Positions 1,402 through 23,350 of a DNA stretch of 23,585 bases are shown here, piece by piece. Under the pieces are notes generated by a model. The model ran no database searches. It saw only the letters and a program-made list of their open reading frames with translations, and was not told the origin of the DNA. Position 1 is the first letter of the stretch, and each line of letters opens with the position of its first letter. Source of the stretch: a virus (lineage: Duplodnaviria; Heunggongvirae; Uroviricota; Caudoviricetes); IMG/VR virus record IMGVR_UViG_2565956613_000007; one strand, given 5' to 3'. Position numbers and translations under genes: made by a program.

Positions 1402-1841
1402 TTGGCTGGGGTGTATGCGTTCTTGCGTTAGCCTTAGCCGATCGCTATTTGCTAAAACGCAAGGACATCACGCATTTAGAACTTGGTGATGTGGAAATTA
1501 AACCGGGTTTCATCCGGGTGCCGTTCAAGTACCGGTCTAAATTCCCGTTTTTGCGCGGCGCAACGGTCAGATATTGGATCCGCGATGTTCAGAAGCCGAC
1601 GACAGTGATTGAAGGTGAACAACGTTGTCTGACGTCGGCTGAACAGGGCGAAAACAGTGAATGGTTGTACATACCCACTGAATATATGGGTAAAGGAGAG
1701 CGACTGTGGCATTTCAACGTCATGGTTACGCATGGCGACTCGTTCATTAACCCGTTGTATCGGATTTTCCCTGTTACTCAGCAAATCCGCAGAAGTTACG
1801 TAATAAATCTCGCACAGGATGTGTCAGATGACGAAAAATAA
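1398..1841 (+). CDS. lydB: Antiholin-like protein (147 aa)
   Basis: ATG overlaps the lydA stop (ATGA) with GGAGG 7 nt upstream, so it is translationally coupled to the holin. Symbol by synteny with P1 as I recall it. Confidence 0.55.
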   Translation: MIGWGVCVLALALADRYLLKRKDITHLELGDVEIKPGFIRVPFKYRSKFPFLRGATVRYWIRDVQKPTTVIEGEQRCLTSAEQGENSEWLYIPTEYMGKGERLWHFNVMVTHGDSFINPLYRIFPVTQQIRRSYVINLAQDVSDDEK

Positions 1842-2430
1842 GTATGCAACGGTCGATTTTGACCAGGTTAATGAAAAGGGGCTGAAATCCCTTATCGCGG
1901 CGATCAATAAAACCGGTGTTACGGTAATTGAGGTTGACTCCAGCAACCGCGCAACAACGAAAGATGGCGTTAAAGTTAAAACCGCAAAGCTGGTTCTTAA
2001 CGACGGACAAATTCTTGCCATACAGGTAAACGATACTGGCGATATATCGTCTGTGAAGCTGAATGGAAAAGCTATTCCTAACGCTCAGTCGCCGGATATC
2101 AAGACGCTTGGTACCGTCATGGGACAGGCGGCCCGCAAAAACTCCGCAAAATTCCAGAAATCACTGATCGCCAAAGCGAAGCGTGTTGCCAATCCGGTAG
2201 ACAAGAAACCGGCAGTTAAATCCAACTTTCAGCGCCTGCAAGAAGCAAAACAGCGGAATGCTCAGGTGGTTGCCGCTTATAAGTCCGCGCAGAATTCGGT
2301 GTCTTTCAATCAACAGCAGATCACTGATTTGCGGGCGAAGCTGGATAAGGAGACGGGCCGACTCAATAACGAAAAGGCACGGAATGGCGAACTCAAACGT
2401 CGTCTTAAGCAACTGAAAGCAGGAAATTAA
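1828..2430 (+). CDS. hdf: Hdf, DarA-related protein of the Dar antirestriction operon (about 200 aa)
   Basis: Preferred start ATG 1828 (AGGA 8 nt upstream) rather than the track start 1819. Shares the heptapeptide KNSAKFQ and a similar basic, K/A-rich context with the next ORF (darA), consistent with Hdf being a homolog of a DarA fragment. Confidence 0.6.
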   Translation: MTKNKYATVDFDQVNEKGLKSLIAAINKTGVTVIEVDSSNRATTKDGVKVKTAKLVLNDGQILAIQVNDTGDISSVKLNGKAIPNAQSPDIKTLGTVMGQAARKNSAKFQKSLIAKAKRVANPVDKKPAVKSNFQRLQEAKQRNAQVVAAYKSAQNSVSFNQQQITDLRAKLDKETGRLNNEKARNGELKRRLKQLKAGN

Positions 2431-2431
2431 C

Positions 2432-4351
2432 ATGGAACAGTTCAATATCAATAAAGGGGTGACGATCAAGCCTGGGCTTGACGTGCTTCCCCCGCCAGTG
2501 ACTGATGATGAATATCGCGCATTAATGGCCGGTGAGGACCGCTATCTGATGACGGAATCCAACACCCTGGAGGAAATCGAGGCTACGTTCTTCTATGACA
2601 CGCCGATCCACTGGTGTGCTACGGATTTACTGGAGGCGATTAGTTCTACTCGTTTGCAGTTACACCGGACCATGCAGGCATTTGTCCGGGCATTGAACCA
2701 GAAGCTGAATGGTACCGGAATCTCTGCGGGGAGTGATAAAACGGGGGATGTGGCCCAGAGCGGCGCGCGCGCGATCGGCGGCGCTGAAATTGGCCGGGCA
2801 CGTAACGTTAACGGGCTGCCGGTCCTGCCAGCCATTATTCCGCTCAGTGATGGTCAGACTATCAGCATTCTGTTTCATAGCCCGACAGCGGAAAACCGGA
2901 TCACCAATAGCGATACGCTGGTTGCTTTCCAGTTCTTACTGAATAAAAAAGACGTTACTCACACCGTTGCTCCGATGAGTGGACGTGATATGACGCTGGC
3001 GCAGGTCACCATGAAACTTGCCAACCTTGCAGAGAAAAACTCGGCAAAATTCCAGCGTGCGCAGAAGAAGAAAAAAGCCCTTGTTGATGAAATAACCCAA
3101 CTACAGGCTGACAGTGACCAGAAAGAGGATGCCATGAGCGACCTCGCGGATCAGGTGGCAGCGGTAGAAGGGCAGAAGGCAGATCTGGAGCAGAAAATTA
3201 ACGCTGTTGCATCGGAAGCGGATTCTCTTTATGAAGAGAATGAGCGTTTGCAGACGGAGATTGATCAGCTCAATCGCACTGGTGGGCGCGATACCATTGC
3301 TCCAGCGGGGATGACTGGTGGGCACTCTCGCGCGCTGACGGATCGCCTTGCCAGTATCAAAAATCGTATGCATATGAACGGGGAAGTGACGCTCAGTAAT
3401 GGAGCATCAATGAAGCAATTCATTGAGGACGGCGAAGGGTATATCCAGTTAACCGATTCGGATGGCAGCGTGTACATGATCAAGGCTAAATCCATACAGG
3501 GTGTGGACATGGCAGATGCGATCGGCAAGCTGTTTAAAGCCTATAAAGCGGGTAATGTATCGGAATATCTGGTCCAACCAGAAGAACATAAACCGGAAAA
3601 CGTCGAACCTGAACCAGCGGAGGATACCGGTAGCTCTTCGCCTGAACCAGAAGTCTCTGTAGGTGCATATCGATATGCCTTGCAAATGCGTCCGGCGGCC
3701 CCTGGCGCAATACCTGAAGGTAACAAAGCAATTCTGCCGCGCCCTGATGAAGGTGACCCGTATTATGAATATGCACGCTACGGCATTGCTACTTACGATA
3801 CCCCGCTTTCTGATCAGCAAATGAGTGAGTACGACCTGAAGTTATTGCCTCGCGAGGATTCTTTCGACTTCCTGGCGAAGACACTTACTAATGGTCCGTT
3901 TGGCAAATATGCACAAAAAGCTCTGGATCTGGCCACCAGCTCACCAGACGAGTTCCGCGTAATGCTGAAAACTCAGTTTCAAAAAACTTTCCCCAATATT
4001 GCGTTTCCGGGGGGCGCAGGCACCGAGAAAATGGTGCAGAGCATGATCAATGCATTGCAGGCCGAAGTCGGTGAGATTACTCAGCCAGAACCTGCCCCGG
4101 CACAGCCTGATGAAACGGTTAGCGAAGCAGATGCAGAGGCTAATAAAGCCATTGAATATCTCAATAACGTGATGGATATGCAAAGCACTGACATGGCGGA
4201 GATCCGTAACGCCCGGGGTAATGTCCGGGAAGCGATTGCAGCCCTTCAGGCTGCCGGGCGTTTTGAGGAAAACGAAGAGCTGGTTAATGGCGCTGCTCGC
4301 CACCTGGCTGATCTGCTGGTAGCAATCCAGAAAGCGGGGGTAGCGGCATGA
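2432..4351 (+). CDS. darA: DarA-like virion antirestriction/head morphogenesis protein (639 aa)
   Basis: AGGA 8 nt upstream of the ATG. Size and position (hdf-darA-ddrA-ddrB order) match the P1 dar operon as I recall it. Contains coiled-coil-like segments (QLQADSDQKEDAMSDLADQVAAVEGQKADLEQKINAV). Confidence 0.68.
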   Translation: MEQFNINKGVTIKPGLDVLPPPVTDDEYRALMAGEDRYLMTESNTLEEIEATFFYDTPIHWCATDLLEAISSTRLQLHRTMQAFVRALNQKLNGTGISAGSDKTGDVAQSGARAIGGAEIGRARNVNGLPVLPAIIPLSDGQTISILFHSPTAENRITNSDTLVAFQFLLNKKDVTHTVAPMSGRDMTLAQVTMKLANLAEKNSAKFQRAQKKKKALVDEITQLQADSDQKEDAMSDLADQVAAVEGQKADLEQKINAVASEADSLYEENERLQTEIDQLNRTGGRDTIAPAGMTGGHSRALTDRLASIKNRMHMNGEVTLSNGASMKQFIEDGEGYIQLTDSDGSVYMIKAKSIQGVDMADAIGKLFKAYKAGNVSEYLVQPEEHKPENVEPEPAEDTGSSSPEPEVSVGAYRYALQMRPAAPGAIPEGNKAILPRPDEGDPYYEYARYGIATYDTPLSDQQMSEYDLKLLPREDSFDFLAKTLTNGPFGKYAQKALDLATSSPDEFRVMLKTQFQKTFPNIAFPGGAGTEKMVQSMINALQAEVGEITQPEPAPAQPDETVSEADAEANKAIEYLNNVMDMQSTDMAEIRNARGNVREAIAALQAAGRFEENEELVNGAARHLADLLVAIQKAGVAA

Positions 4352-7713: not shown

Positions 7714-8014
7714 AATCGCAGCGCCATTAGGCGGAGATGCCATTATCGAATTTGATGATAATGAAGAAGTTTCCGGGCGTTTAAGCATTATCTCCGGTGA
7801 CATTACCGAGGACATGATCGCTGAAGCCATAGCTGGGGCAAATCCCAATAGCTATATGGGATTCGTTAACACCCTTGATGCTCCCGCAAGTGATGTTCTC
7901 CGAACGCTGCATCTTTACGCTGGCTGGTTTGTTGATTGGCCAGCAGTAGATGGTGGCGATGAGGACGACGACGACGATGATTTTGGTGATCATGTAGACC
8001 AGATCGTATATTGA
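7703..8014 (+). CDS. Small acidic protein with a poly-Asp C-terminal tract (103 aa)
   Basis: ATG overlaps the end of ddrB with AAGGAG 8 nt upstream. The C-terminus DGGDEDDDDDDFGDHVDQIVY is strongly acidic. It is the last gene of the dar operon before a terminator. Confidence 0.55.
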   Translation: MQIKIAAPLGGDAIIEFDDNEEVSGRLSIISGDITEDMIAEAIAGANPNSYMGFVNTLDAPASDVLRTLHLYAGWFVDWPAVDGGDEDDDDDDFGDHVDQIVY

Positions 8015-8034
8015 AGAAATCCCGCCGATTGGCG
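8007..8034. terminator. Rho-independent terminator between convergent operons
   Basis: Seen in sequence: AAATCCCGCC-gatt-GGCGGGATTT stem-loop followed by a T run on the plus strand. It sits between the end of the dar operon (plus) and the end of the ssb operon (minus). Confidence 0.7.
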
Positions 8035-8042
8035 GGATTTTT

Positions 8043-8831
8043 TTAATCGCTTTCCACTTCTTCCGTGGTGTTTTCTTGCAGTTCTGTTAATGCAGCACGA
8101 CATAGGTTCCGGGCATTGGCTATAGCCACACTTTTGACTTCATCCGTCATCGTGCAGGTAATGTACTGATCGAGTTCTTCAGCGCGGATGATGCTTTTGC
8201 CAATCAGAAACTGTATTTGCCAGAGCAGATCGGCATCCATAATCAGAATTTCTGCCGGGCCTTCAGGGCCAGCCGGGAAGGAAACATAAGACTGTTTGCC
8301 CAGGCCGATAACTCGACAACTTGCTTCAAGAATTGCGCGCTTGAGGTCTGACTTTGTAACGGAAACAGGTTGGTTTTCACCAGTGATTATGCCGTTGACA
8401 TGGAAATGGAAGGGCATGTAGCTTGAAATACGCTCTACTTTCCACACGCCAGCAAGCGATCCTTCATGCAGCACAATGGGGGTAACCGCGAGTTTCATCT
8501 CACCATATAACTGCTGGCAGATAGCTGGATTGCTGAATACATCCAAAGGTTCACACTCAAACAGCGGCGCAATCTGCATGAGGTCCATCATGGTCATACC
8601 AGGGGTACGAGCAGTAATGAATCTGCGCATGCCAGTATCCATTGTGCGCCAGATAGCTACACCATGCTTTTTGCTCACTTCTTCAGTAAAGCCAAGGTGG
8701 CACATGATGGTTTTTTCGATAGCCAGATCAGAGATCGAAACCTTTTCGCCAGGCACACCATCATTATTGATGGTCACTTCGACACTCTGACCATTACGCA
8801 GGCGGTATTGAATTGCTTTAGTATTTTCCAC
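8043..8831 (-). CDS. Hypothetical protein (262 aa), last gene of the ssb operon
   Basis: GTG start 6 nt after the stop of the upstream gene, preceded by GGAG. No motif recognised. Confidence 0.55.
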   Translation of the reverse strand: MENTKAIQYRLRNGQSVEVTINNDGVPGEKVSISDLAIEKTIMCHLGFTEEVSKKHGVAIWRTMDTGMRRFITARTPGMTMMDLMQIAPLFECEPLDVFSNPAICQQLYGEMKLAVTPIVLHEGSLAGVWKVERISSYMPFHFHVNGIITGENQPVSVTKSDLKRAILEASCRVIGLGKQSYVSFPAGPEGPAEILIMDADLLWQIQFLIGKSIIRAEELDQYITCTMTDEVKSVAIANARNLCRAALTELQENTTEEVESD

Positions 8832-8837
8832 GTTAAA

Positions 8838-9515
8838 TCACTCCACTACAAACCAGTCACATGCCAGTAAGTCGCCTACAGAAGGAACCCACGGAACAAC
8901 TACACCTTGTGCATTTTTTAAGGCGAAATAAGCACCATACGGAACGAGGTCGCCGGGGAAATATCCCTTAATGGCTTCCATTCGTGCCGGGTACTGTCCT
9001 TCAGGAACCAGCCAGCAGAATTGGTTTTCGCCGTTCCACCCGCGTCGAGCAACTTTCTTGCCATCCTTCAGCCACATCAGCGCGTCAGAAAAGTCGGCTG
9101 CTTCAAGGTCGATTTCTTCTTGTAGAGTAGCGATACCGCCAGCAGAAATAGTTACGTCCCTGGCTGTAATGAATGTCACCCCATTGTGACCTTCAATGCT
9201 GAGCGATACCCCATTTTCGAAGAAGTCGTTAGTCCGACTAAAGCCTTCTTCAAATGTTTTTTCTGGTGAATAGGACAGAGATCCGTCCTCATAAGCGACC
9301 AGATATCCGCCAATTTCTGGTCGGTGTTTTTGCAAAAACATTTTATCAACATGGACTTTTACCCCTTCTGGCTCAACGACTTCGATGTTGCAAAGAAGGA
9401 CCACATCCATTAGGGCGATAATTTCGATATCTTTGATTTTTGAGGCGCGAACTGTTTTATGGCTTTTGTATTTTGGAAGTGCCGTCAAAAGCTCTTTCGT
9501 TGTCATGTTATTCAT
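8838..9515 (-). CDS. Two-domain protein (225 aa) with a C-terminal DUF2829/Tad2-like domain
   Basis: Preferred start ATG at 9515 with the strong SD GAGGAAAG; the track extends it to 9683 without good initiation signals. C-terminal segment FSDALMWLKDGKKVARRGWNGENQFCWLVPEG ... GDLLACDWFVVE fits the pattern I associate with DUF2829 (the family that includes the Thoeris anti-defence protein Tad2). This is a from-memory assignment. Confidence 0.55.
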   Translation of the reverse strand: MNNMTTKELLTALPKYKSHKTVRASKIKDIEIIALMDVVLLCNIEVVEPEGVKVHVDKMFLQKHRPEIGGYLVAYEDGSLSYSPEKTFEEGFSRTNDFFENGVSLSIEGHNGVTFITARDVTISAGGIATLQEEIDLEAADFSDALMWLKDGKKVARRGWNGENQFCWLVPEGQYPARMEAIKGYFPGDLVPYGAYFALKNAQGVVVPWVPSVGDLLACDWFVVE

Positions 9516-9529
9516 AGTCTTTCCTCTGC

Positions 9530-9712
9530 TTAAAACCTGATGTCTTGCGCCTTCAGGTGGGTCAGGAATGTTTTCCCACCAGCGAAAGCAATATCTCGGG
9601 GTGTTCTTTTCGTGAAAAGCGCGTGCCATTGCCAACTTTGGCGTTTGTTTGCGAGTTCGTGCTTTTGTCGGCGTCTGGACCACCGCTTTTCTTTCAGTCG
9701 TTTTTTACACAT
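9530..9712 (-). CDS. Possible small basic protein (60 aa)
   Basis: The ATG directly abuts the ssb stop (TGAATG) and the ORF ends 14 nt before the next gene start, so it fills the inter-gene gap exactly. Very Arg/Lys-rich. No SD of its own, so low confidence. Confidence 0.3.
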   Translation of the reverse strand: MCKKRLKEKRWSRRRQKHELANKRQSWQWHALFTKRTPRDIAFAGGKTFLTHLKAQDIRF

Positions 9713-10201
9713 TCAAAACGGAATATCGTCGTCAAAGTCCATTGGAGGTTCGTTATTGGCGTTGCTCTGAGGTTTACCGCCACCACTGTATTGCTGGTGG
9801 TTTTGAGGTTGGTTTGATTGCCCCCAGCCATTTGAGGACTGTGAATCGTCACGGCGAGCGCCGATCATTTGCATGGTGCCGCCCTGGCTGACGATAATTT
9901 CCGTCGTGTAACGTTCTACACCGGCGTCATCTGTCCACTTACGGGTTTTAAGTTTCCCTTCGATGTAGACCTGAGAACCTTTTCGTAAATATTCACTCGC
10001 AATTTCAGCAAGTTTTCCGAACAAAACTACTTTATGCCATTCTGTTTGCTCTTTCTGTTGGCCCGTTTGCTTGTCGCGCCATGATTCATTCGTTGCGATG
10101 CTGAGTCTTCCGACCGCGCCGCCATTTGGTATATACCTGATCTCCGGGTCTTGCCCCAGGGTACCAATCAGGATGACTTTGTTTACACCGCGTTGTGCCA
10201 C
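9713..10201 (-). CDS. ssb: Single-stranded DNA-binding protein (162 aa)
   Basis: Classic SSB OB-fold sequence ([18 protein letters not shown] ... [14 protein letters not shown]), a Gly/Gln-rich linker and the acidic C-terminal tail MDFDDDIPF. Confidence 0.92.
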
Positions 10202-10220
10202 TTATCTTACCTAATAAAAT

Positions 10221-10237
10221 AAATTAATTAGAGCAAT
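10221..10237 (-). promoter_or_regulatory. C1 repressor operator-like 17-mer (16 of 17 match to the consensus ATTGCTCTAATAAATTT as I recall it)
   Basis: Seen in sequence: the minus strand reads ATTGCTCTAATTAATTT, located 20 to 36 bp upstream of the ssb start in the ssb/lyz divergent region. Confidence 0.5.
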
Positions 10238-10260
10238 AATGTATATCTTTGAAACGTGGC

Positions 10261-10282
10261 TAACAAGTGATTTGCATTATCC
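10261..10282 (+). promoter_or_regulatory. Putative late-promoter element TAACAAGTGA plus downstream AT-rich hexamer
   Basis: Seen in sequence: TAACAAGTGA at 10261..10270 followed by tttgcaTTATCC, about 90 bp upstream of lyz. The same 10-mer recurs upstream of prt; the ACAAGTGA core recurs upstream of the gene at 22558..23199. Confidence 0.4.
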
Positions 10283-10370
10283 TGTGCCTTCTAAAGGGAT
10301 CGAGTCAGTCGGTATTGGCTGTGAATGAGTGTTTGTCCTGGAGCGTAAAAAATTCGCTTATGAGGTCTTT

Positions 10371-10928
10371 ATGAAGGGAAAAACAGCCGCAGGAGGCGGT
10401 GCAATTTGCGCTATCGCGGTGATGATTACCATCGTGATGGGTAATGGCAATGTGCGAACCAACCAGGCGGGGCTTGAGCTGATTGGTAACGCTGAAGGTT
10501 GCCGACGTGATCCATACATGTGCCCGGCGGGGGTATGGACTGACGGGATTGGTAATACACACGGGGTAACGCCGGGTGTGCGAAAAACCGACCAGCAAAT
10601 CGCCGCTGATTGGGAAAAGAATATCCTGATCGCTGAACGCTGTATTAATCAGCACTTCCGGGGCAAAGACATGCCCGATAATGCCTTCAGTGCAATGACA
10701 AGCGCGGCATTCAATATGGGATGCAATAGCTTACGAACCTACTACAGCAAAGCGCGAGGCATGCGAGTAGAAACGTCCATCCACAAGTGGGCGCAGAAAG
10801 GGGAATGGGTGAATATGTGTAACCATCTCCCTGATTTCGTGAACAGTAACGGCGTGCCCCTGCGAGGTTTAAAGATTCGCCGTGAAAAAGAACGCCAGCT
10901 TTGCCTGACAGGACTGGTCAATGAATAA
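10371..10928 (+). CDS. lyz: SAR endolysin, T4-lysozyme-like fold (185 aa)
   Basis: Preferred start ATG 10371 (GAGG upstream). N-terminal signal-anchor-release segment AAGGGAICAIAVMITIVMG. With this start, Cys13, Glu42, Cys44, Cys51 and Thr57 fall at the positions I recall for P1 Lyz. Confidence 0.88.
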   Translation: MKGKTAAGGGAICAIAVMITIVMGNGNVRTNQAGLELIGNAEGCRRDPYMCPAGVWTDGIGNTHGVTPGVRKTDQQIAADWEKNILIAERCINQHFRGKDMPDNAFSAMTSAAFNMGCNSLRTYYSKARGMRVETSIHKWAQKGEWVNMCNHLPDFVNSNGVPLRGLKIRREKERQLCLTGLVNE

Positions 10929-11175
10929 ACTCCGGCAGCTCCGCCGACTTTCGACAATGAAGTTATCGCTGGCGGCGATAGTTTTCGACTCGATTTTCAT
11001 GGCGGTATATGTGCTCAATGAGACGTGGCCACTGGAACCGCTATTGTATGCTGGGCTTCGGCTGTGCCTGACATTTTTGAGCATGGCTGCAAGATTGATG
11101 CAGCAGAAAGAAACCGCTTCAGATTGTCCACGCCGCGCGGTGCGCAAATATATGGCACGCAGGCGAAGGCGATAA
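10921..11175 (+). CDS. Small membrane protein (84 aa) with a poly-Arg C-terminus, translationally coupled to lyz
   Basis: ATG overlaps the lyz stop (ATGAATAA). Hydrophobic core LSLAAIVFDSIFMAVYVL and C-terminus RKYMARRRRR. Possibly lysis-associated; function not established. Confidence 0.45.
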   Translation: MNKLRQLRRLSTMKLSLAAIVFDSIFMAVYVLNETWPLEPLLYAGLRLCLTFLSMAARLMQQKETASDCPRRAVRKYMARRRRR

Positions 11176-11188
11176 TAGTTAACGAGAA

Positions 11189-11214
11189 CCCCGGCAGCCG
11201 CCGGGGTTATTTTT
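11189..11214 (+). terminator. Rho-independent terminator after the lyz operon
   Basis: Seen in sequence: CCCCGGC-agcc-GCCGGGG stem-loop followed by TTATTTTT. It lies between the convergent lyz operon and pro. Confidence 0.7.
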
Positions 11215-11219
11215 GGTGG

Positions 11220-13950
<2,731 letters not shown>

Positions 13951-13984
13951 TTAATTAGAATAATTCGCATCGTGTTTGAACGGA

Positions 13985-14006
13985 ATTTAACACTAGTCAC
14001 TTGTTA
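13985..14006 (-). promoter_or_regulatory. Putative late-promoter element for prt within a near-palindromic 21-bp sequence
   Basis: Seen in sequence: the minus strand reads TAACAAGTGActagtgTTAAAT. The surrounding 21-mer TTAACA-AGTGACTAG-TGTTAA has 6-bp inverted arms and sits in the 75-bp prt/darB divergent spacer. Confidence 0.4.
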
Positions 14007-14016
14007 AGGATTACCA

Positions 14017-17000
14017 ATGAACAAGCTATCTATGGGGGTGTTTCGCTGTTCAAGTGTCAGCGAAATATTGAAATACATTAGGGCAATAACATCTCACCGA
14101 GCGCCGATTAGATACGGCGTGGAAAAGGTGGAAGGCAAAAGCTATGACCGACTACGCCGGGAGGCGAATCAGAAGGCGATTGATTTGCTTAATTCGCTGG
14201 TGGACGGCGCGACACTGACAGATGAACAGCGCCAGATCCTGGCTGGGTACACCGGTGAAGGCGGCATTGGCGGGTCCGTCTCCGAATATTACACACCAAA
14301 GCCGATCGCTGAAGGTGTCTGGGAGATCATGAAGCTCTACGGCGCGGACGTAGGTAACACTCTGGAACCATCGGCGGGCACCGGCGTTTTTAATGAGACA
14401 AAACCGGTTGGTACGGTGATGACTGCGACTGAGATCAGCAGTGTTTCCGGTCGTATAAACCAGCTGTTACACCCGGAAGACAGCGTACAGATTTCCCCGT
14501 TCGAACAGCTGGCTGTAAGCACGCCTAACGATTCATTCGACCATGTTGTGGGTAACGTTCCGTTCGGTGGTCGTGATAACACACGCAACATCGATAAGCC
14601 TTACGCAGAAGAAACGGACATGGGTTCTTACTTCATGCTCCGCATGCTGGACAAGATAAAGCCAGGCGGATTCATGTGCGTGATTGTGCCGCCGTCCATT
14701 GTTTCAGGTTCAAACATGAAGCGGTTACGCCTGCGCCTATCACGGAAAGCTGAATTTCTTGGTGCTCACCGCTTGCCTACCGGTACTTTTGACGCAAACG
14801 GGACCAGTACAGTCGTTGATGTGGTGCTGATGCGCAAACATCCGGCAGAGATGGCTGAGAAAATCCCCCTGGTGGATGAAAGCACTCTTGAATCGGCAAA
14901 TGTGCTTTGGCCAACGTTTATTTCTGGCAAGTGGTTTGAAAAGGACGGTCGCCGGTTTGTTCATGGCACCCAGGAGAAGGGATTCCAGGGGCGTATTGAG
15001 GTTCGTGCCGACGGGCAGATTGATAACCAGGCTCTTAAAGCGAAGCTGATTCATCGTTTCGAAAGTCGTATCGACTGGTCTTTACTCAATATGGCTGAAC
15101 CGTCACCGACCGCAGACGTTGTTGATGAAGGGGAAATGCGCCTGATTAATGGCGTATGGCAAAAATATGCTGGTGGTCGCTGGATTGAATCTGATGCAGG
15201 GAAGGAGCTGAAGATTGATGTTGCCAGTTATGGCGCGGACAGCTGGGAGGCTCTTCAGCGTAACCTGACTACAACAGAAGGCCGTCTCGGTATGACATTT
15301 ACCCAGATGGCAAATGTCCGCGATAAGTACACCACATCAATCAGCGACGATATGGTGCAGCTGGTGGACTGGATTAACAGCCAGCCTGAAAAATACCGTG
15401 AACGCTTGTATCGCGGGGCGATGATTGGCCGGATGTTAATTGAATATCAGGACATGAAGGCCGCCGGGCATAGTGCTGAACAAATCGAACAGCAGCGCCT
15501 TTCTCTGGTATCCCGTTTGCAGGCAGAGATTGACCGTTTTGGTAACCCCGGTCGCGGTCCGATAGCGAAATTATCGGGGAGCGGTGCGCGCGCCTGGTTT
15601 GCTTTCCGTGGTGCAATTAAGCTGGATGGCACTATTTCTGACGAGCTGACAGGAAAACTGGTTACGCATGATTCCAGCGCCAGTTATGACTCCACCAGCT
15701 ATCAGGACACCCTGCGTTATCTCTACAGTGATCTCACTCGCGATCCAATCCAGCTCGATGATTTCCGCCTTGCGTTTACCGGCGAACTGCCAGCCAGTGA
15801 TGACGAGTTGCTTAATTTATTGGCCAGCACCCCTGGCATTGCGGTTTCACCGTATGGCGGGATTGTTCCGTTCGCCCGCGCCACCAGCGGAGACATTAAC
15901 GAGATAGTGGCACCAAAACAGGAATTCCTTGCCACACTCCCCGACGGTCCAGTAAAGAACAACGTCCTTAATCAGCTGGCAGCGATCGAAGAGAAGCGCA
16001 TCAAGACGCCAGCAGAGAATATCCGCTTTAAGCTCAATAGCCGTTGGTTCGACCGTTCCGTCATTCTGGAATTTTTGCAGGAAAACGGCTATCCGGATCT
16101 TCGCTATGTGCAGTCAGTGCAGCTGGAAGGCGACGAAATGGTTTCTGACACCTATCACGGTGGTGATGGTCTGTTCGTCGGGCACCGATACGGTGTTGTC
16201 CAGCGCAAGGATAAAGAAACAGGCGAGATCCGCTACGAGTGGGACCGTAAATCAGGTGAAAACGCGACCGGGTTCCCGGCACAGCTGGAAAAGTATCTCA
16301 ATGGTGCGCGTATCGGTGGCAAAGATAGCGCGACGGCGAACGGCTACCGCGAGCAGATGGCACTGCTTGAGGACCAGTTCAATAAGTGGATCAAGACGCA
16401 CGATCGCTACGATGAACTGGTTGCCAAATACAACGATGTGTTCAATAGCAATATCCCGTATGAACACTCTGGCGATCCGCTTGGGTTGAAGGGATTAAGC
16501 GGTAAGCGCCAGCCATTTGATTACCAGAATAGCGAAGTGCGCCGACTGTCCGAAGATGGGCGCGGCATCCTGGGCTTCGGCACCGGGCTGGGTAAAACTA
16601 CGACCGCGCTGGCGCTTGAAGCGTTCAACTATGAGAACGGTCGCTCCACCCGTACTGCGTATGTAGTGCCTAAATCAGTGCTGGAAAACTGGTATTACGA
16701 AGCAAAAGAATTCCTGAGTGAAGAGGCATTCAGTAACTACCTGTTCGTCGGTCTTGATGTGCTGATGGATGGCGATCAGATTCGCCAGGTGCCGGTGCTC
16801 GATGAGAACGGTAAACCTGTTCTTGGTACTGATGGCACTCCAGTTATGCGCGATGCCCTAAAACTGGCAGATGAAGCCACTATCACGGCGCGGATGAACG
16901 CGATCCCGCACTCAAATTACCGTGCAGTCGTGTTTACCAAAGAACAATACGCCCGCATTCCGCTACGTGATGACACCGTAGATGAGCATGCACAGGATAT

Positions 17001-20000
17001 GCTTTATGACTTCGTTGCCGCCGGGCGCGTAGCCAGCGCAATGGACTCCGACTCCCACCGCAAAGAGGCCGCGCGTCGCCGGGTATTGTCGGAGTATTCA
17101 GATACCGGCACCGAAAAAGCAGAGAAGTATCCGTACTTTGAGGATATGGGCTTCGATAGTGTGATCGCTGACGAAGGTCACAACTACCGCAATAGCTATA
17201 AAAATGGTCGCGAAGCGTCACAACTGGCCTATCTGCCCACCAGCGCGGTGGCGCAATCGGCGCGGGATATGGCAATTAAAAACGCGTACCTGATGAAAAA
17301 GAATGGTGGGCGCGGACCGGTTCTCCTGACTGCAACGCCAGTCGTTAACACCCCGATCGATGCATACAACATGCTTTCTCATGTGCTGCCGAAGGAATAC
17401 TGGCAGAAGATGGGGATCTACGGTCCTGATGACTTCGTTAAATTCTTCGGCAAGACCAGGCTGGAAACGGTACAGAAAATCAGCGGTGAAGTTGAAGAAA
17501 AAATGGCGCTGGTGGGCTTTGAAAACCTTGATGCGCTGCGCGGCATATTCCATCGCTGGACAACGCTTAAAACGGCGGAAGACGTTAAGGATACCGTGGA
17601 GATCCCGGAACTGGACGAGCACCAGCAGGATGCACCACTTACTGAAGAACAACTGGCGGCGTATGAAGAATTACGTCAGCAGGCGGAAGCGGCAGCAAAA
17701 GCCAACAATGGCGTAACGACCTCGGTCAATGAAGACGGCGTGATTGAGCACGAGAAAGCCCGTCCGATCTTCTCAATAATCAGGGATATGGACCGCGTAT
17801 GTACTGACATGGACCTGTACTATCGCAGGATCACCTATCGTTTCCTGCCGGAGTACGCCGATGCGGTGCAGCAGCTGGCGGACAGTTTGCCTAAACAAGC
17901 CACCAGCGAAGACGACGACAGTGATGATTCAATCACGCAGCAATCGCAATACTCCCTGATAGATAAGGGCGAGTTTATTCAGTTGCAGGTTCCGGAAGCG
18001 TTCGAGCAGGAAGTGAATAAGCGCCTGGCCAGGTTTGGCATTGACGAACAGACCGTAACTCACCCCGTTACACCCAAATACGCGAAGCTGATCGCCACGC
18101 TGAAGGAGTTTTTCCCGGAAGGTAAGCAAATCATCTTCACGGACGAAAAAACGCAGCACCAGAAGCTCAAGCGCATTATCTGCAATGCTCTTAACCTTGA
18201 ACCTTCAAAGGTGGGGATCCTGAATGCTCAGACGGTTGCCGAGGCAGGTAAAACCGGTAAGAAACTGAAAGCGGTTAAACCGCCGAAAGAGTTACCGGAT
18301 GAACCAACAGATGCACAGATAGCGAAATACAACGAGCAAATGGCTCTGTATGACGCCTATATCGCGCAGCAAAATGAAATGTCGTTGGGCGGTCTGGAAA
18401 AGATTGCTGCCGACTTCCAGGAGGGCCGGACCCCGATCATCATCTGCAACAAAAAGGCAGAGGTGGGTATCAACCTGCATCGAGGAACGACTGACATCCA
18501 TCATCTGACGTTGCCATGGACACCAGCCAGTATCGCACAGCGTAACGGTCGCGGTGCCCGAGTTGGCTCCAACCGTGCAAGCGTACGCGTTCACTACTAC
18601 TGCGGCAAAGGTTCTTTCGATGAATACCGACTGAAGACGCTGAAGCGTAAAGCAGGCTGGATCTCCGATATCCTCCGTTCAGATAAGTCAGAAATGGAGA
18701 ACGCCGACGCCAACGATATGATCGAAATGCAGATGTATACCGCTAAGGATGATGGCGAACGTCTGGCAATGATGCAGGTTCAAATGGATAAGGCGAAAGC
18801 CGCGCAACGCGCTCGCCAGAAAGAACAGGCTACTATCGACCTTCAGAACTACATCAAGGCGCAGCACGCAGCTGGCGAGGATGTGGAGGTACTTACCGCT
18901 GAATTAGAGCGAAGCAAAGCGGAACTTGAAAAGACCACCGCCGAGGTAGCTAAATTCAAACAGACGGTAATGGCCAAAGCAGCTGATAACGCAGACTGGA
19001 AGGCCCGCTGGGGTAGCGTCCATCACACAGACCGTACGTTGTTAGCACAGTATCGCGCGTCGTTGAAAAGCGCCATTCAGCGCAAGGCTAATATCTCTCA
19101 AGCCATCTCCCGCTATGAGAAATTATTGAACCGTACTCAGAAGGCCGCGACGGATATCAAACGCCTGCGCCCGCTGGTGGAGGATGCAATAAATAAAGGC
19201 ATTCTGGATGTTGATCCTGATCTGGTTAACCATGCGAATAAGTTCCTTGTTATCGGCGATCGCTCATGGCGTGTAGGCCAATACTACGATTGTGCCGGTG
19301 ATATCGTTCGCATTAAGTCGCTGGACTTCGACAGCCAGCGCGCAGACGTGGAGATCATCTTTACCTTCAAAGGCACCAAATCGGGTAACTGGGATGTGAA
19401 GACGCTGGATAAACAGGTGGATGTAACTCCCGATGAAGATGCTGTTATGCAGAAAATCAGTGGTGGCGTCTCCATCGCCGGGATTAATGACATCATTTCC
19501 TGTGACGATTTCTACCGTTTCCAGCAGCGCGGCATGATCAAAATCACTGACTCATACGGCGTTCAGACTACAGAGTCAGGCTATAGCATTGATTTTGTTG
19601 GTACCTATACGGCCCCACTGAAGCATGCGGTTTACCCGGATCGCCGTGACGGCGCGCTGAAGTCGTCAATTGCAAAATGGGTGCTTGGTATGATGTCGGA
19701 AGGGAATAACCGCCAGATCCGTTCGGCAGAAACATTCCTGGTTGAATTGTTTGGCTCCAATTATGGCGATGTAATCGCGTCATACGGAGATACGCTATCC
19801 CCTGAAGCAATTCAGGAGAAAATAGTGGATGCGATCGCAAAAATGCCGGAGAAAACAAGCCAGGGGGCTACTCGTAACGGGGATTCTGAACTTGAGGTCA
19901 CCAATGCCATTTTCGGTACCCATGAGTTCCGGGCGTCAGATTATGAGATCACCACAGCACAGTTTGGCACTATTGGCATTTACAGCAATAAAGCCGATAT

Positions 20001-20784
20001 CAAGCAGGCAATGGACGCAGCAAGCGCGCGCATCGCAGCAGAACGGGAAGCCAATCTGAATCATGCAGTCGCCGCACTGACTCAATCGTGGGTAACAGCA
20101 ATCAGGGAGGCCGCCACCACAGGGAAAATCACACCTGCAATTGCGGATGTCGTAAACGACGGCTCTAAATTTATGGATGCCTATAAAATGGATTCGGTGC
20201 AGTTGCCATCAGCCTATGGCCAACTCAGCTATCGCATGACCTACAACCTGGTATCAATGTTTTCCGACCTTGCCATCCTTGGGCTGGTGGATCTTAACGA
20301 GGTTACGCCGGAATTGCTCAGCATGCGCAAGAATCATGTGGAGATATTGCAGAGAATTAACACGGTTCTTGCCGGGCGCACCGATGAAGAGAAACAGGCC
20401 GACGCTGATCGGATAAACCTGGCCCTTGGCAACATCACGGAGGAAGAAATTGCCGCCAGAAACGAGAAACAAGAAGAGTTATCATCAATACAGGGTGATG
20501 CCACCAGCATAGCTCAGTCTCTTGGTCTGAATTATCGCGTATCCACCGCCGACCTGAAGATGATGTACGCACCAAAATTCGCCGCTGGCGAGGTATTTGG
20601 GCTTCAGGAAGCCTCAGGCATGAAAGGCGTTCTTTTCCGTGCCAAAGACGCAATCAAGGCGAAATTCGGCGCTCGCTGGCTGCCAGCGAAGGCGAAGAAC
20701 AGCGATTTCCCGGGTAACTGGTGGATTATCGAGACAAAACACAACGTGGCGGACGTTCTGGCCGTCATCCAACAATACGCATAA
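14017..20784 (+). CDS. darB: DarB-like giant antirestriction protein: N-terminal N6-adenine methyltransferase motifs plus an SF2/SNF2-like helicase domain (2255 aa)
   Basis: AAGGA 6 nt upstream of the ATG. SAM-binding motif LEPSAGTGVF (14362..14391), catalytic-type motif VGNVPFGG (14548..14571), Walker A GFGTGLGKTT (16573..16602), DEGH box (about 17167..17181) and motif VI QRNGRGAR (about 18538..18561). Length matches my recollection of P1 DarB. Confidence 0.88.
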   Translation: MNKLSMGVFRCSSVSEILKYIRAITSHRAPIRYGVEKVEGKSYDRLRREANQKAIDLLNSLVDGATLTDEQRQILAGYTGEGGIGGSVSEYYTPKPIAEGVWEIMKLYGADVGNTLEPSAGTGVFNETKPVGTVMTATEISSVSGRINQLLHPEDSVQISPFEQLAVSTPNDSFDHVVGNVPFGGRDNTRNIDKPYAEETDMGSYFMLRMLDKIKPGGFMCVIVPPSIVSGSNMKRLRLRLSRKAEFLGAHRLPTGTFDANGTSTVVDVVLMRKHPAEMAEKIPLVDESTLESANVLWPTFISGKWFEKDGRRFVHGTQEKGFQGRIEVRADGQIDNQALKAKLIHRFESRIDWSLLNMAEPSPTADVVDEGEMRLINGVWQKYAGGRWIESDAGKELKIDVASYGADSWEALQRNLTTTEGRLGMTFTQMANVRDKYTTSISDDMVQLVDWINSQPEKYRERLYRGAMIGRMLIEYQDMKAAGHSAEQIEQQRLSLVSRLQAEIDRFGNPGRGPIAKLSGSGARAWFAFRGAIKLDGTISDELTGKLVTHDSSASYDSTSYQDTLRYLYSDLTRDPIQLDDFRLAFTGELPASDDELLNLLASTPGIAVSPYGGIVPFARATSGDINEIVAPKQEFLATLPDGPVKNNVLNQLAAIEEKRIKTPAENIRFKLNSRWFDRSVILEFLQENGYPDLRYVQSVQLEGDEMVSDTYHGGDGLFVGHRYGVVQRKDKETGEIRYEWDRKSGENATGFPAQLEKYLNGARIGGKDSATANGYREQMALLEDQFNKWIKTHDRYDELVAKYNDVFNSNIPYEHSGDPLGLKGLSGKRQPFDYQNSEVRRLSEDGRGILGFGTGLGKTTTALALEAFNYENGRSTRTAYVVPKSVLENWYYEAKEFLSEEAFSNYLFVGLDVLMDGDQIRQVPVLDENGKPVLGTDGTPVMRDALKLADEATITARMNAIPHSNYRAVVFTKEQYARIPLRDDTVDEHAQDMLYDFVAAGRVASAMDSDSHRKEAARRRVLSEYSDTGTEKAEKYPYFEDMGFDSVIADEGHNYRNSYKNGREASQLAYLPTSAVAQSARDMAIKNAYLMKKNGGRGPVLLTATPVVNTPIDAYNMLSHVLPKEYWQKMGIYGPDDFVKFFGKTRLETVQKISGEVEEKMALVGFENLDALRGIFHRWTTLKTAEDVKDTVEIPELDEHQQDAPLTEEQLAAYEELRQQAEAAAKANNGVTTSVNEDGVIEHEKARPIFSIIRDMDRVCTDMDLYYRRITYRFLPEYADAVQQLADSLPKQATSEDDDSDDSITQQSQYSLIDKGEFIQLQVPEAFEQEVNKRLARFGIDEQTVTHPVTPKYAKLIATLKEFFPEGKQIIFTDEKTQHQKLKRIICNALNLEPSKVGILNAQTVAEAGKTGKKLKAVKPPKELPDEPTDAQIAKYNEQMALYDAYIAQQNEMSLGGLEKIAADFQEGRTPIIICNKKAEVGINLHRGTTDIHHLTLPWTPASIAQRNGRGARVGSNRASVRVHYYCGKGSFDEYRLKTLKRKAGWISDILRSDKSEMENADANDMIEMQMYTAKDDGERLAMMQVQMDKAKAAQRARQKEQATIDLQNYIKAQHAAGEDVEVLTAELERSKAELEKTTAEVAKFKQTVMAKAADNADWKARWGSVHHTDRTLLAQYRASLKSAIQRKANISQAISRYEKLLNRTQKAATDIKRLRPLVEDAINKGILDVDPDLVNHANKFLVIGDRSWRVGQYYDCAGDIVRIKSLDFDSQRADVEIIFTFKGTKSGNWDVKTLDKQVDVTPDEDAVMQKISGGVSIAGINDIISCDDFYRFQQRGMIKITDSYGVQTTESGYSIDFVGTYTAPLKHAVYPDRRDGALKSSIAKWVLGMMSEGNNRQIRSAETFLVELFGSNYGDVIASYGDTLSPEAIQEKIVDAIAKMPEKTSQGATRNGDSELEVTNAIFGTHEFRASDYEITTAQFGTIGIYSNKADIKQAMDAASARIAAEREANLNHAVAALTQSWVTAIREAATTGKITPAIADVVNDGSKFMDAYKMDSVQLPSAYGQLSYRMTYNLVSMFSDLAILGLVDLNEVTPELLSMRKNHVEILQRINTVLAGRTDEEKQADADRINLALGNITEEEIAARNEKQEELSSIQGDATSIAQSLGLNYRVSTADLKMMYAPKFAAGEVFGLQEASGMKGVLFRAKDAIKAKFGARWLPAKAKNSDFPGNWWIIETKHNVADVLAVIQQYA

Positions 20785-20790
20785 CAGGAG

Positions 20791-20808
20791 CGCCCGGTTC
20801 GCCGGGCG
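20791..20808 (+). ncRNA. GC-rich hairpin with a UUCG tetraloop between the SD and the ulx start codon (structured mRNA element)
   Basis: Seen in sequence: CGCCCGG-ttcg-CCGGGCG, a 7-bp stem, lying between AGGAG (20786..20790) and the ATG at 20818. Confidence 0.5.
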
Positions 20809-20817
20809 TCGCATAAT

Positions 20818-21258
20818 ATGGCCACACTATCTGATACAATAAAACCGAATAAAACATATCTTGAGGCGGTACTCCGTACAGCGTTGTTAGGAAAGACAGA
20901 AGACGAATACGTTGATTTCTTCCTGTCAGGGCTACGCGGGCGATTACTGAAAAATCCCCGCCTGTACCGCAGCTATGGTCCATACTGGCCGGAAATTAAA
21001 AAATTATTACTGGAGCGCGGTTATGGTAATTTCGGTCGTCTCGTTGACCGTGACGTTCGCAAAATTTACCGTTATGACCGCCCGGCGCTGACGCTCATAG
21101 CTGCGACGCTCTACAGCCAGGAGCGTTTTGATAATGGTCAGATATACTCAGCCTGGCATTTACTGCCAGTGCCTGAAGAGGTTGACGACCAGGACTATGA
21201 GTTTGAGTCTTACGATTTGGAAGTTGAAGCCTTAGCACAGGCTGGAGAGAAAACTTGA
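20818..21258 (+). CDS. ulx: Ulx-like protein (146 aa)
   Basis: Position directly downstream of darB on the same strand and upstream of an 82-aa ORF matches P1 darB-ulx-lxc as I recall it. No motif recognised. Confidence 0.5.
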   Translation: MATLSDTIKPNKTYLEAVLRTALLGKTEDEYVDFFLSGLRGRLLKNPRLYRSYGPYWPEIKKLLLERGYGNFGRLVDRDVRKIYRYDRPALTLIAATLYSQERFDNGQIYSAWHLLPVPEEVDDQDYEFESYDLEVEALAQAGEKT

Positions 21259-21503
21259 AAAAGCGATACTACACAGTAAAGCATGGGACGCTACGAGCAT
21301 TACAAGAGTTTGCTGACAAGCATAACGTTGAGGTGCGCAGGGAAGGGGGAAGTAAAGCTCTGCGCATGTACCGTCCGGACGGGAAATGGCGTACGGTCGT
21401 CGATTTCAAAACTAACAGCGTTCCCCAGGGCGTCCGCGATCGGGCATTCGAAGAATGGGAGCAGATCATCATAGATAACGCATTGCTTCTGAATGCTGAT
21501 TGA
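21255..21503 (+). CDS. lxc: Lxc/Bof-like small protein (82 aa), putative C1 co-repressor
   Basis: Apparent TTG start overlapping the ulx stop (TTGA), with GGAGAG 5 nt upstream. The 82-aa length and the position after ulx match my memory of P1 lxc (bof). Symbol by synteny. Confidence 0.5.
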   Translation: MKKRYYTVKHGTLRALQEFADKHNVEVRREGGSKALRMYRPDGKWRTVVDFKTNSVPQGVRDRAFEEWEQIIIDNALLLNAD

Positions 21504-21564
21504 TTTCTTATTAGGCCACTTTATTTTTTAGAGTGGCCTAAATTACTTATAATTAGGATGTGAT

Positions 21565-22515
21565 ATGAATGTTTTTATTGATACAAATCTATATTTAGAA
21601 TTTTATCGAATGGGTAAGGATAAACTAGATGAGCTAGATAAAGTATTTGCCTTACATCAATATGGTCGTTTAAAACTTTGGTTGCCAGAACTTTTAGTGA
21701 ATGAGTTCTGGAGAAATCGTTCTAAAGTTCTCTCTGAAACCATAAAGGAAATTGCAAAAGACTACAAGCCCGCGCTACCACAGATTTTCAGACAGCATGA
21801 AAAACATTCACTATTTAATGATAAGGTTATAGAAGCTAGTCGGCTAAAGAATGAAATTATTACCGATATACAGAACTTATTTAAAGAAGAGTCTTTAGCT
21901 GCCGATGTTGTAATTAAAAGGATTTTTGATGCAGCGTCTAAGATAGAGGCTGATGATGAAACAATAGAAAAGGGGAAACGCCGATTCGATCTTGGCAACC
22001 CTCCGGGTAAAAATAAATCATATGGTGATGCAGTCAATTGGGAGTGTTTGCTAAAAGCGATACCAAACGGAGAGGATATATACATTATAACTGAAGATGG
22101 TGATTATAAAAGTGCCTTTATAAAGGATGATATGAATGAGTATTTGAAGTACGAGTGGAAAAAGAAGAAAGATTCAGAACCACATATCTATGCCCGCTTA
22201 TCAGAGTTTATAGGCGAGCACTTTCCTCAAGCCAGTAACTTAGCGGAAATGGAAGTTAATTTCACTATAGATGAATTACGCCGCTCAGGCAGTTTTGCCA
22301 CAACACATCGAGTTGTAGCAAAGTTATTAAAATTCAATCATTTTACACAAGAGCAAATCCTAAAAATAATCGATATCTATTTTAATAATGATCAGGTTGG
22401 CTTCATTAAAGATGATGATGATGTAAAACTACTCGCCAGAAGACTAATATCACTTGGTGACGAGGATAAAGATCCTGAAGGGATGCTTGAGCCATTCCGT
22501 GTATTTATTGATTAA
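21565..22515 (+). CDS. PIN-like nuclease-domain protein (316 aa) in an AT-rich acquired cassette; candidate defence/abortive-infection effector
   Basis: ATG with AGGA 6 nt upstream. N-terminal beta-strand with Asp (MNVFIDTN), then LPELLVNEF, DLGNPPGKNKSYGDAVNW and IYIITEDGDY, a spacing of acidic residues typical of PIN-like folds. Codon usage and base composition are visibly AT-rich, unlike the flanking genes. Confidence 0.7.
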   Translation: MNVFIDTNLYLEFYRMGKDKLDELDKVFALHQYGRLKLWLPELLVNEFWRNRSKVLSETIKEIAKDYKPALPQIFRQHEKHSLFNDKVIEASRLKNEIITDIQNLFKEESLAADVVIKRIFDAASKIEADDETIEKGKRRFDLGNPPGKNKSYGDAVNWECLLKAIPNGEDIYIITEDGDYKSAFIKDDMNEYLKYEWKKKKDSEPHIYARLSEFIGEHFPQASNLAEMEVNFTIDELRRSGSFATTHRVVAKLLKFNHFTQEQILKIIDIYFNNDQVGFIKDDDDVKLLARRLISLGDEDKDPEGMLEPFRVFID

Positions 22516-22557
22516 TTAATGTAATGGGCGTGGGCGCATAGTTAGCGCCCAAGAAGT

Positions 22558-23199: not shown

Positions 23200-23330
23200 A
23201 GCGCCCCCTACAAAAAAGAAAAGCCACCAGCGGCGGCTTAGCAATACAACAGAAGGTAGCGCCCGGTACTCAGACTGTGCCGTCCATGGAATATTTGAAA
23301 AGGGATCCATCCGTACCGGGCGTGTGATGA

Positions 23331-23350
23331 TTCTGACTGAAGTCACTTGT
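23331..23350 (-). promoter_or_regulatory. Putative late-promoter element (ACAAGTGA core) upstream of the 22558..23199 gene
   Basis: Seen in sequence: the minus strand reads TTGACAactgACAAGTGActtcagTCAGAA, about 130 to 150 nt upstream of the ATG at 23199. Confidence 0.35.

Follow-up and report, generated by a model that had tools for sequence, protein, structure and literature searches.

The adjacent genes hdf and darA of a P1-like phage are very probably ancient paralogs, the heptapeptide KNSAKFQ shared by their products being the family consensus, retained in both, of a DarA_N-domain helix that is critical to the fold. That Hdf and DarA are paralogs is already known from the gene name, Pfam PF18788, Iyer 2017 and cryo-EM of the DarA-Hdf pair, and with the complex of both proteins already solved, homology in itself adds little beyond housekeeping. 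What is added here is that the colinearity of the two proteins continues through their long pairing helix, so that the capsid-bound heterodimer is made of paralogs, that in the last DarA_N helix the heptapeptide equals the consensus of the family and is split by the Pfam boundary, and that Hdf has no counterpart of the DarA insertion overlapping the hexon-contact loop. These points may help in the design of Hdf and DarA mutants or in redrawing the domain boundaries.

Gene and domain map

The window, that is, the whole stretch of 23,585 nt that was analysed, is from a P1-like phage, and the region described here is its darA operon. Open reading frames and the P1 annotation gave the gene order lydA-lydB-hdf-darA-ddrA-ddrB downstream of the late promoter LPdar, as in the darA operon of P1, and Pfam placed a ddrB-ParB domain in the next large ORF. 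The P1 reference (NC_005856) has the same gene order and an identical heptapeptide, and the window is a P1 variant with a DNA identity of about 98.4-98.8%; hdf itself is approximately 98-99% identical to the gene annotated as hdf in that reference. Both products are the same proteins as those in the P1 structures (PDB 9ukm and 9vz0, chains H and I), with about 13 substitutions in DarA and, in an Hdf of the same length as 9ukm chain H, two substitutions in 203 residues. Residues are numbered from the ATG at 1819 for hdf and from the ATG at 2432 for darA, and the features are as follows.

1819..2430, + strand: hdf coding sequence, 203 aa from ATG 1819 (ORF list, P1 annotation)
1855..2190, + strand: Hdf DarA_N alpha+beta domain, aa 13-124 (helix 23-31, strands 36-81, helix 94-124)
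2137..2157, + strand: Hdf KNSAKFQ, aa 107-113, middle of helix 94-124
2224..2418, + strand: Hdf long C-terminal helix, aa 136-200 (AF2), colinear with DarA 221-283
2432..4351, + strand: darA coding sequence, 639 aa (ORF list, P1 annotation, full-length match to PDB 9ukm chain I)
2432..2638, + strand: DarA N-terminal ~69 aa, without Hdf counterpart (pair alignment; low pLDDT at residues 1-68)
2627..3055, + strand: DarA DarA_N domain, aa 66-208 (AF2: helix 77-91, strands 113-170, helix 189-203)
3035..3055, + strand: DarA KNSAKFQ, aa 202-208, at the kink where the last DarA_N helix (189-203) gives way to the long helix (205-282)
3044..3277, + strand: DarA long helix ('alpha-helix domain'), partner of the Hdf helix, aa 205-282 (AF2, Zheng 2026, hhalign)
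3662..3847, + strand: DarA_C domain, aa 411-472 (Pfam PF18789, E=5.6e-17), absent from Hdf

An earlier note on this DNA had started hdf at 1828, which is the second in-frame ATG (M4) and gives 200 aa, and the start in most database gene calls; the full ORF begins at 1819. An AGGA at 1815-1818, 9 nt 5' of the ATG at 1828, favours the 1828 start. Hdf matched PHROG 1620 ('Hdf-like antirestriction') over its full length (E=4.7e-80, aa 4-203 on profile positions 2-200 of 200), and DarA 166-283 weakly matched the same profile (3.2e-4). Both proteins cover the Pfam DarA_N model (PF18788) end to end, at positions 2-122 of 122, and score far above threshold, Hdf with aa 13-109 (E=1.1e-21, 77.3 bits, cutoff 27) and DarA with aa 66-204 (E=3.8e-42, 143.4 bits). 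The AF2 model of Hdf has a mean pLDDT of 84, and its last DarA_N helix extends to aa 124.

Extent of the similarity between Hdf and DarA

The partial duplication of hdf and darA that the earlier note had claimed is borne out by the pairwise alignment it proposed, and the similarity reaches well past the heptapeptide by BLASTP, Pfam and hhalign alike: all of Hdf is colinear with DarA from about residue 66 to 283, in agreement with the name 'homolog of DarA fragment'. BLASTP aligned Hdf 29-115 with DarA 107-210 at 29% identity (E=0.001). Using hhalign with a 12-sequence Hdf family and a 22-sequence DarA family, Hdf 43-202 was colinear with DarA 121-283 at a probability of 97.8% (E=7.7e-13). The N-domain without the motif gave 2e-5 in hhalign versus 0.34 for a reversed control, the motif helix alone 6e-7 versus 0.012, and the long helix alone 7e-7, where support for homology is weakened by coiled-coil composition, the reversed control still giving 5e-4. 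Searched against the PDB, the AF2 model of Hdf had significant matches only to the solved DarA chains 9vz0_I (E=4e-6) and 9ukm_I (1.6e-5), over 200-209 columns, and the helix-strands-helix order of both AF2 models is that of an alpha+beta fold.

In its published description DarA-N forms the N-domain of DarA and is the only domain of Hdf, and it has an alpha+beta fold, a conserved Asp and an NX+ motif (Iyer 2017, PMC5512222). Hdf D62 and DarA D140, as well as Hdf N82-G-K84 and DarA N171-K-K173, are invariant in both family alignments, and the Asp and N-x-basic residues were identical between the paralogs in all six phages compared; D140 and N171 are 100% conserved in 153 representative DarA_N rows. 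By our own reading of Iyer 2017, the published NX+ motif is assigned to N171 and not to N203.

An old duplication would have produced the adjacent pair, all of Hdf corresponding to DarA ~66-283, that is, the DarA_N alpha+beta domain followed by the long helix. Compared with DarA, Hdf lacks the ~65 residues cleaved from the N-terminus, a pair of loop insertions and all of the sequence past residue ~285. In the alignment these two insertions in the DarA_N domain of DarA fall at about aa 92-109 and 153-165, and the published hexon-contact loop overlaps an insertion of DarA that has no equivalent in Hdf.

Hdf and DarA belong to the proteins of the virion head and carry the annotation of head-size determinants (Gonzales 2022, PMC9024508), and cryo-EM of the head revealed 55 DarA-Hdf pairs per head (Zheng 2026, PMC12810830; bioRxiv 10.1101/2025.11.26.689930). 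In each pair the long helices of one DarA and one Hdf form a parallel bundle on the inner face of the capsid, at the junctions of pentons with hexons; the pair touches packaged DNA and is required for normal head size and for loading of the other Dar antirestriction proteins (Zheng 2026). According to Piya 2017 as cited by Zheng 2026, loss of Hdf or of DarA removes all other Dar proteins. Contact between DarA and Hdf is made by the downstream alpha-helical domains, and capsid contacts by the alpha-helical domains and DarA loops 102-116, 321-326 and 342-346, none of them in the motif segment (Zheng 2026). In the same study Hdf residues 135-203 were modelled as an alpha-helix domain, the N-domain of Hdf, motif included, was not resolved in the map, and the N-terminal segment of DarA was not visible in the virion, having probably been removed by the prohead protease. 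A mobile Hdf N-domain in the cryo-EM map fits the finding that Hdf is without the hexon-contact-loop insertion.

The heptapeptide in the DarA_N family

Each protein contains a single copy of KNSAKFQ, and the identical heptapeptide in a similar basic context described in the earlier note is exact: the contexts GQAARKNSAKFQKSLIAKAKR and NLAEKNSAKFQRAQKKKKA were verified, and the sequence around the motif is basic in Hdf and in DarA. At the DNA level the 21-nt motif is the best direct repeat between hdf and darA, with no other occurrence in the window and 0 expected (100 shuffles). At DarA positions 202-208, K, N, S, A, K, F and Q are the respective majority residues of 152 representative DarA_N domains. 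N203 was found in 150/152 and F207 in 150/151, both among the ten most conserved columns; 20-22 DarA homologs show no variation at E201, N203 and F207, and in the 152 representatives conservation at these positions is about 98%. The pattern [KR]N[ST]x[KR]F was present in 109 of 150 DarA_N representatives. The Pfam model stops at the KNS of the motif, so its boundary splits the heptapeptide and leaves the highly conserved F207 outside, and the description of DarA-N in Iyer 2017 does not mention the E-[KR]-N-S-x-K-F signature.

The same N-terminal domain and helix signature as in the P1 pair occur in polyvalent phage proteins with DarA_N, which are mostly multidomain proteins of 900-1800 aa (71/150 of at least 900 aa), and the motif is kept in hundreds of DarA_N domains within long polyvalent proteins of unrelated phages (median 851 aa). 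P1, unlike these phages, has its functions divided over separate genes and carries a small solo paralog, Hdf.

For the helix at DarA 189-209 the direction of the hydrophobic moment (354 deg) coincides with that of the conservation moment (342 deg), and N203, S204 and F207 lie on that face. K202, A205 and Q208 are directed outward, away from this face, with K206 on the helix flank, and outward positions vary family-wide (A205, 1.56 bits; Q208, 1.89 bits). On the evidence of helical periodicity and conservation rather than coordinates, N, S and F are most likely buried, packing the amphipathic helix against the beta-sheet, and the outward and flanking lysines would contribute to the basic surface that, in the described DarA-Hdf complex, faces the DNA. 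In DarA the motif is also the hinge at which the N-domain passes into the long helix.

Other hdf and darA loci were compared with the window. A scan of viral contigs for diverse hdf loci returned only 99-100% identical P1 copies, and a scan of species-dereplicated genomes returned seven loci, with new divergent pairs from L090 and L092-L094. With a DarA-type HMM made from the 152 representatives no Hdf ORF was recovered at E<=1e-3, and the Hdf ORFs of other loci were located by tblastn coordinates. The order lydB-hdf-darA-ddrA is conserved in five loci (L002-L006), among which Hdf identity falls as low as 38%. A distantly related metagenomic phage (L008) also has a gene pair for a small Hdf-type and a large DarA-type protein, next to that for a ~2,500-aa helicase-domain protein, and in a Methylomonas prophage (L007) a DarA_N protein is present with no recognisable Hdf upstream.

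In ten other Hdf/DarA pairs the Hdf copy shares only 1-4 of the 7 motif residues with its own DarA, and the gene pair is retained. No within-genome co-variation of the motif was found among these ten pairs (1.90 within versus 2.09 between genomes, permutation P=0.92). The drift of Hdf and this lack of co-variation make an element of the fold core the best reading of the motif, rather than a discrete peptide for targeting. Concerted evolution still acting on the motif was also considered and rejected, there being no excess within-genome identity across 11 same-genome pairs. The Hdf motif of the window matches the DarA of each of 11 genomes at 4-7 of 7 positions and so fits the consensus rather than its own partner specifically. 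The identity of P1 Hdf and DarA at the motif would then be explained by retention, in both, of the ancestral consensus of a helix critical to the fold; all DarA lineages examined have kept this consensus, whereas among Hdf proteins it survives in the P1 lineage proper alone.

Alternative readings of the shared segment

That two basic proteins should share a lysine-rich heptapeptide by coincidence is extremely improbable. Hdf and DarA are both rich in K, A and Q, and of 2000 shuffles 27 produced a common 6-mer; only one produced a common 7-mer, and the match lies in register within a significant colinear alignment, on conserved family columns. A chance match was rejected on these shuffles and the in-register profile alignment.

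A recent micro gene conversion or template switch in the P1 lineage, in which ~21 nt were copied between darA and hdf and a drifting Hdf helix was re-made identical, is an improbable reading with several points in its favour. The motif DNA is identical at 20 of 21 nt, for which P is ~0.019 for a match of at least this quality given the same peptide, operon codon usage and independent codon choice. Within the pair the motif is an outlier, with 7/7 residues against 4/7 in the next-best 7-column stretch and a background identity of 24.5%. The darA orthologs of L002 and L003 differ from that of the window at several synonymous sites in the motif codons, which indicates no obvious codon-level constraint, and in Hdf clades with 69-79% identity to P1, 3-4 of the 7 residues are already different. 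However, DNA identity was found on neither side of the motif, leaving no flanking identity for homologous pairing, and the longest perfect run is 12 nt. The ten other pairs, as above, do not co-vary within genomes; P1 Hdf matches foreign DarA proteins at 6/7, the peptide being the family consensus; and each P1 Hdf residue that is changed in one Hdf clade is present in another (A4 in L003 and L090, Q7 in P0027), so that retention needs little coincidence. The 20/21 nt identity is slightly better than simple ancient retention predicts, and counts against that explanation.

The earlier note had also suggested that with the heptapeptide the two proteins share a module for interaction or targeting. 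We consider it quite unlikely that it is a discrete exposed recognition peptide by which both proteins bind the same partner, whether in capsid, scaffold or protease docking or in DNA contact. In its favour, both proteins are packaged in the head and, in the citation of Piya 2017 noted above, all other Dar proteins are missing when either is lost; in addition, K202, A205 and Q208 point outward in basic surroundings. The most conserved residues, N, S and F, are nevertheless family-wide fold signatures on the hydrophobic face, whereas the exposed A205 and Q208 are variable. Divergent Hdf orthologs with QAAPAFA, ASAPTFA or AAAPAFA still adjoin darA, the motif is kept in polyvalent proteins of unrelated phages that will not share the capsid partners of P1, and the published capsid and DarA-Hdf contacts are elsewhere. 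The module that Hdf and DarA share is the whole domain, not the peptide.

Beyond ancient paralogy with a retained consensus, there is a small but real chance either that the 21-nt identity reflects micro-conversion between the paralogs or that the DarA-Hdf capsid anchor is an ancient pseudo-homodimer, in which a DarA_N-plus-helix unit was duplicated and its copies now pair with each other. In the latter case the hexon-contact loop may have disappeared from the small copy and its helix signature may have become relaxed. If this were true, the pair of small and large DarA_N proteins in L008, outside the P1-like phages, could point to a general capsid-internal module for DNA anchoring and cargo loading.

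The hdf and darA genes and their common heptapeptide

Over its first 8 kb, the window shares 98.3-98.8% identity with phage P1 and phages closely related to it, and comparison of the ORFs with the annotated reference NC_005856 identified cin, lydC, lydA, lydB, hdf, darA, ddrA, ddrB and hxr.

Positions of hdf, darA and the two KNSAKFQ copies in the window
1819-2430: hdf, 203 aa (ORF and NC_005856 annotation)
2137-2157: KNSAKFQ in Hdf, residues 107-113, single occurrence in the protein
2432-4351: darA, 639 aa (ORF and NC_005856 annotation)
3035-3055: KNSAKFQ in DarA, residues 202-208, single occurrence in the protein

The earlier note had reported an identical heptapeptide in both products, and this was confirmed, once per protein and with the quoted flanking residues exact. 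No 8-mer was common to the two whole proteins, and shuffling Hdf against DarA gave a shared 7-mer in 1 of 2000 trials. The two 21-nt stretches encoding the motif differ at one base (TCC versus TCG) and form the top direct repeat between the genes; the window has no other copy of the pattern (chance expectation 0).

The interval used in that note, 1828-4351, runs from the second in-frame hdf ATG to the darA stop codon. Within bp 1815-1830 there are in-frame ATGs at 1819 and 1828, and since an AGGA (1815-1818) abuts the former but lies 9 nt ahead of the latter, ATG 1828, giving a 200-aa product (MTKNKYATV...), looks like the better start from the sequence. Hdf is 200 aa long in most database gene calls (one cluster has 924 members) and 203 aa in both RefSeq (P1) and the PDB.

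Downstream, bp 8000-23585 matched the P1 reference in three pieces (87% coverage), with a span of 15.4 kb here versus approximately 19.9 kb in P1, and this variant therefore has insertions or deletions relative to reference P1 in that region. Coverage was a little greater in phages SJ46 and Ro157c2YLVW (92%). A 2255-aa ORF at 14017-20784 overlaps the region annotated as darB in P1. According to the P1 reference annotation, part of darA (L001:4169-4557, approximately window 3669-4057) has 95% identity to GenBank locus ATMET11 (X77335), which looks like P1-derived vector or contaminant inside an unrelated record. An hdf 100% identical to that of the window is labelled as a Bacillota MAG (L089, contig JAFAFU010000075.1), and a DarA of 70% identity (P0057) as Bacillus altitudinis; in both cases DNA of enterobacterial phage-plasmids is the probable source, through contamination or mis-binning.

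Extent of the similarity between Hdf and DarA

Pairwise alignment showed similarity well beyond the heptapeptide. BLASTP aligned Hdf 29-115 with DarA 107-210 (29% identity, E=0.001), and the entire Pfam DarA_N model (PF18788, cutoff 27 bits) matched Hdf 13-109 (77 bits) and DarA 66-204 (143 bits). Iyer et al. 2017 (PMC5512222) defined DarA-N as an alpha+beta domain that stands at the N-terminus of DarA and is the only domain in Hdf; they described an NX+ motif and a conserved Asp, and Hdf and DarA of the window have both features. A profile-profile comparison of 12 Hdf homologs with 22 DarA homologs (97.8% probability, E=7.7e-13) gave one colinear block, Hdf 43-202 with DarA 121-283, which takes in the heptapeptide as well as the domain and the long helix at the Hdf C-terminus. 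When regions were scored alone against reversed-profile controls, each had its own signal, although the E-value of the long helix is partly, not wholly, due to coiled-coil composition.

E-values of separate regions and of their reversed-profile controls
N-domain without the heptapeptide: 2e-5; control 0.34
Helix around the motif: 6e-7; control 0.012
Long C-terminal helix: 7e-7; control 5e-4

The AlphaFold2 prediction for Hdf has a mean pLDDT of 84 and consists of a helix (23-31), strands within 36-81, a helix (94-124), a loop (125-135) and a helix (136-200). Its only significant PDB matches were the solved DarA chains 9vz0_I (E=4e-6) and 9ukm_I (E=1.6e-5), over 200-209 aligned columns. The profile alignment and these structure matches make Hdf a paralog of DarA residues ~66-283, lacking the N-terminal ~65 residues, two insertions (DarA ~92-109 and 153-165) and all sequence past residue ~285, including DarA_C. 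The partial duplication proposed earlier, and the name "homolog of DarA fragment", are thus supported, with homology wider than was claimed.

The heptapeptide within the DarA_N family

An exhaustive search with DarA 66-215 (E<=1e-3) returned 870 representative clusters. Among the best 152 of these, the majority residues at DarA 202-208 were K, N, S, A, K, F and Q; KNSAKFQ is the family consensus at those positions. N203 was present in 150/152 and F207 in 150/151, placing them among the ten best-conserved DarA_N columns together with the D-G-Q strand and the L-N-K motif. Across 20-22 DarA homologs with identity down to 22%, E201, N203 and F207 were three of just 14-16 invariant positions. In both proteins, ...KNS marks the end of the Pfam model (window 3041-3055, DarA 204-208; Hdf 109-113), so that the ~98%-conserved Phe (DarA F207, Hdf F112) lies outside the curated boundary, as does the end of the motif helix.

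On a helical wheel of DarA 189-209, the hydrophobic (354 degrees) and conservation (342 degrees) moments agree in direction, with L189, V192, L196, A200, N203, S204 and F207 on the shared face and K202, A205 and Q208 directed away from it. By this periodicity the motif N, S and F would pack the last DarA_N helix against the sheet, and the outward and flanking lysines may add to a basic surface. The DarA model kinks at S204 into a long helix (205-282), and the motif therefore forms the junction of N-domain and pairing helix in DarA; Hdf has ~14 additional residues there, a loop among them.

Ten further same-genome pairs were compared, from five P1-like elements (L002-L006, Hdf identity 38-79%), one Pantoea locus, three Xenorhabdus loci and a distant metagenomic phage (L008). 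DarA kept [KR]N[ST]x[KA]FQ in all ten, versus NNSVKFR, RNTAKFS, QAAPAFA, ASAPTFA, AAAPAFA and SGRAAFQ in Hdf, where only the Phe is constant and 1-4 of 7 residues match the DarA of the same genome. With the window excluded, mean motif identity was 1.90 within and 2.09 between genomes (permutation P=0.92), giving no sign of concerted evolution by this test. The Hdf motif of the window matched the DarA of every genome compared at 4-7 of 7 positions; it resembles the consensus, not its own neighbour in particular. On the simplest interpretation, P1 Hdf and P1 DarA have each kept the ancestral sequence at a helix that would be critical to the fold, and the Hdf lineage has experienced relaxed constraint there. 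A patch of micro-conversion between darA and hdf could also produce the identity, and the motif is an outlier in the window (7/7, versus 4/7 for the next-best stretch), with at least 20 of 21 identical bases having P ~0.02 given the same peptide and operon codon usage. However, no identity extends into the DNA flanking the 21-nt stretches, and the P1 Hdf residues concerned also occur in other Hdf clades, so we regard conversion as improbable.

The capsid complex and DarA_N proteins in other phages

[quoted passage not shown] 2026, PMC12810830). DarA 1-69 is missing from that map and the Hdf N-domain was too mobile for modelling. An independent preprint agrees, with DarA-Hdf densities missing in small heads (bioRxiv 10.1101/2025.11.26.689930), and a virion proteome list gives Hdf and DarA as head-size determinants (PMC9024508). 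Deletion of hdf or darA yields particles without any of the other Dar proteins (Piya 2017, as cited by Zheng et al. 2026, PMC12810830). Published helix pairing combined with our alignment suggests that the capsid-bound heterodimer consists of paralogs pairing via homologous helices. The DarA 92-109 insertion (window 2705-2758) overlaps the hexon-contact loop 102-116, which is consistent with an Hdf N-domain that is not anchored to the shell.

The proposal that the heptapeptide is a common interaction or targeting module found no support, because its conserved residues would face the domain core, variation falls on its exposed positions, the gene pairing persists where Hdf orthologs lack the motif, and published contacts are located elsewhere. 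The Hdf-DarA relationship was already known: it is recorded in the name of the gene, in Pfam, by Iyer et al. 2017 and in the solved structures PDB 9ukm and 9vz0. Our additions are incremental: the motif is the family consensus and is cut by the Pfam boundary, the colinear alignment runs on through the pairing helix, the Hdf copy has drifted, and one phage outside the P1 group has a small-plus-large DarA_N pair.

A Methylomonas prophage (L007:4234-6053) encodes a 350-aa DarA_N protein with LAEKNSAAFARAN, and upstream of it no Hdf-type gene could be recognised, so not every DarA_N locus includes the small paralog. In L008 (4461-11209), a 176-aa Hdf-type DarA_N protein is encoded immediately upstream of a 402-aa DarA-type protein, the two having AAFQR in common at the motif, and the pair is followed by a ~2,486-aa helicase-domain protein that recalls P1 DarB, suggesting a Dar-like module beyond P1-like phages.
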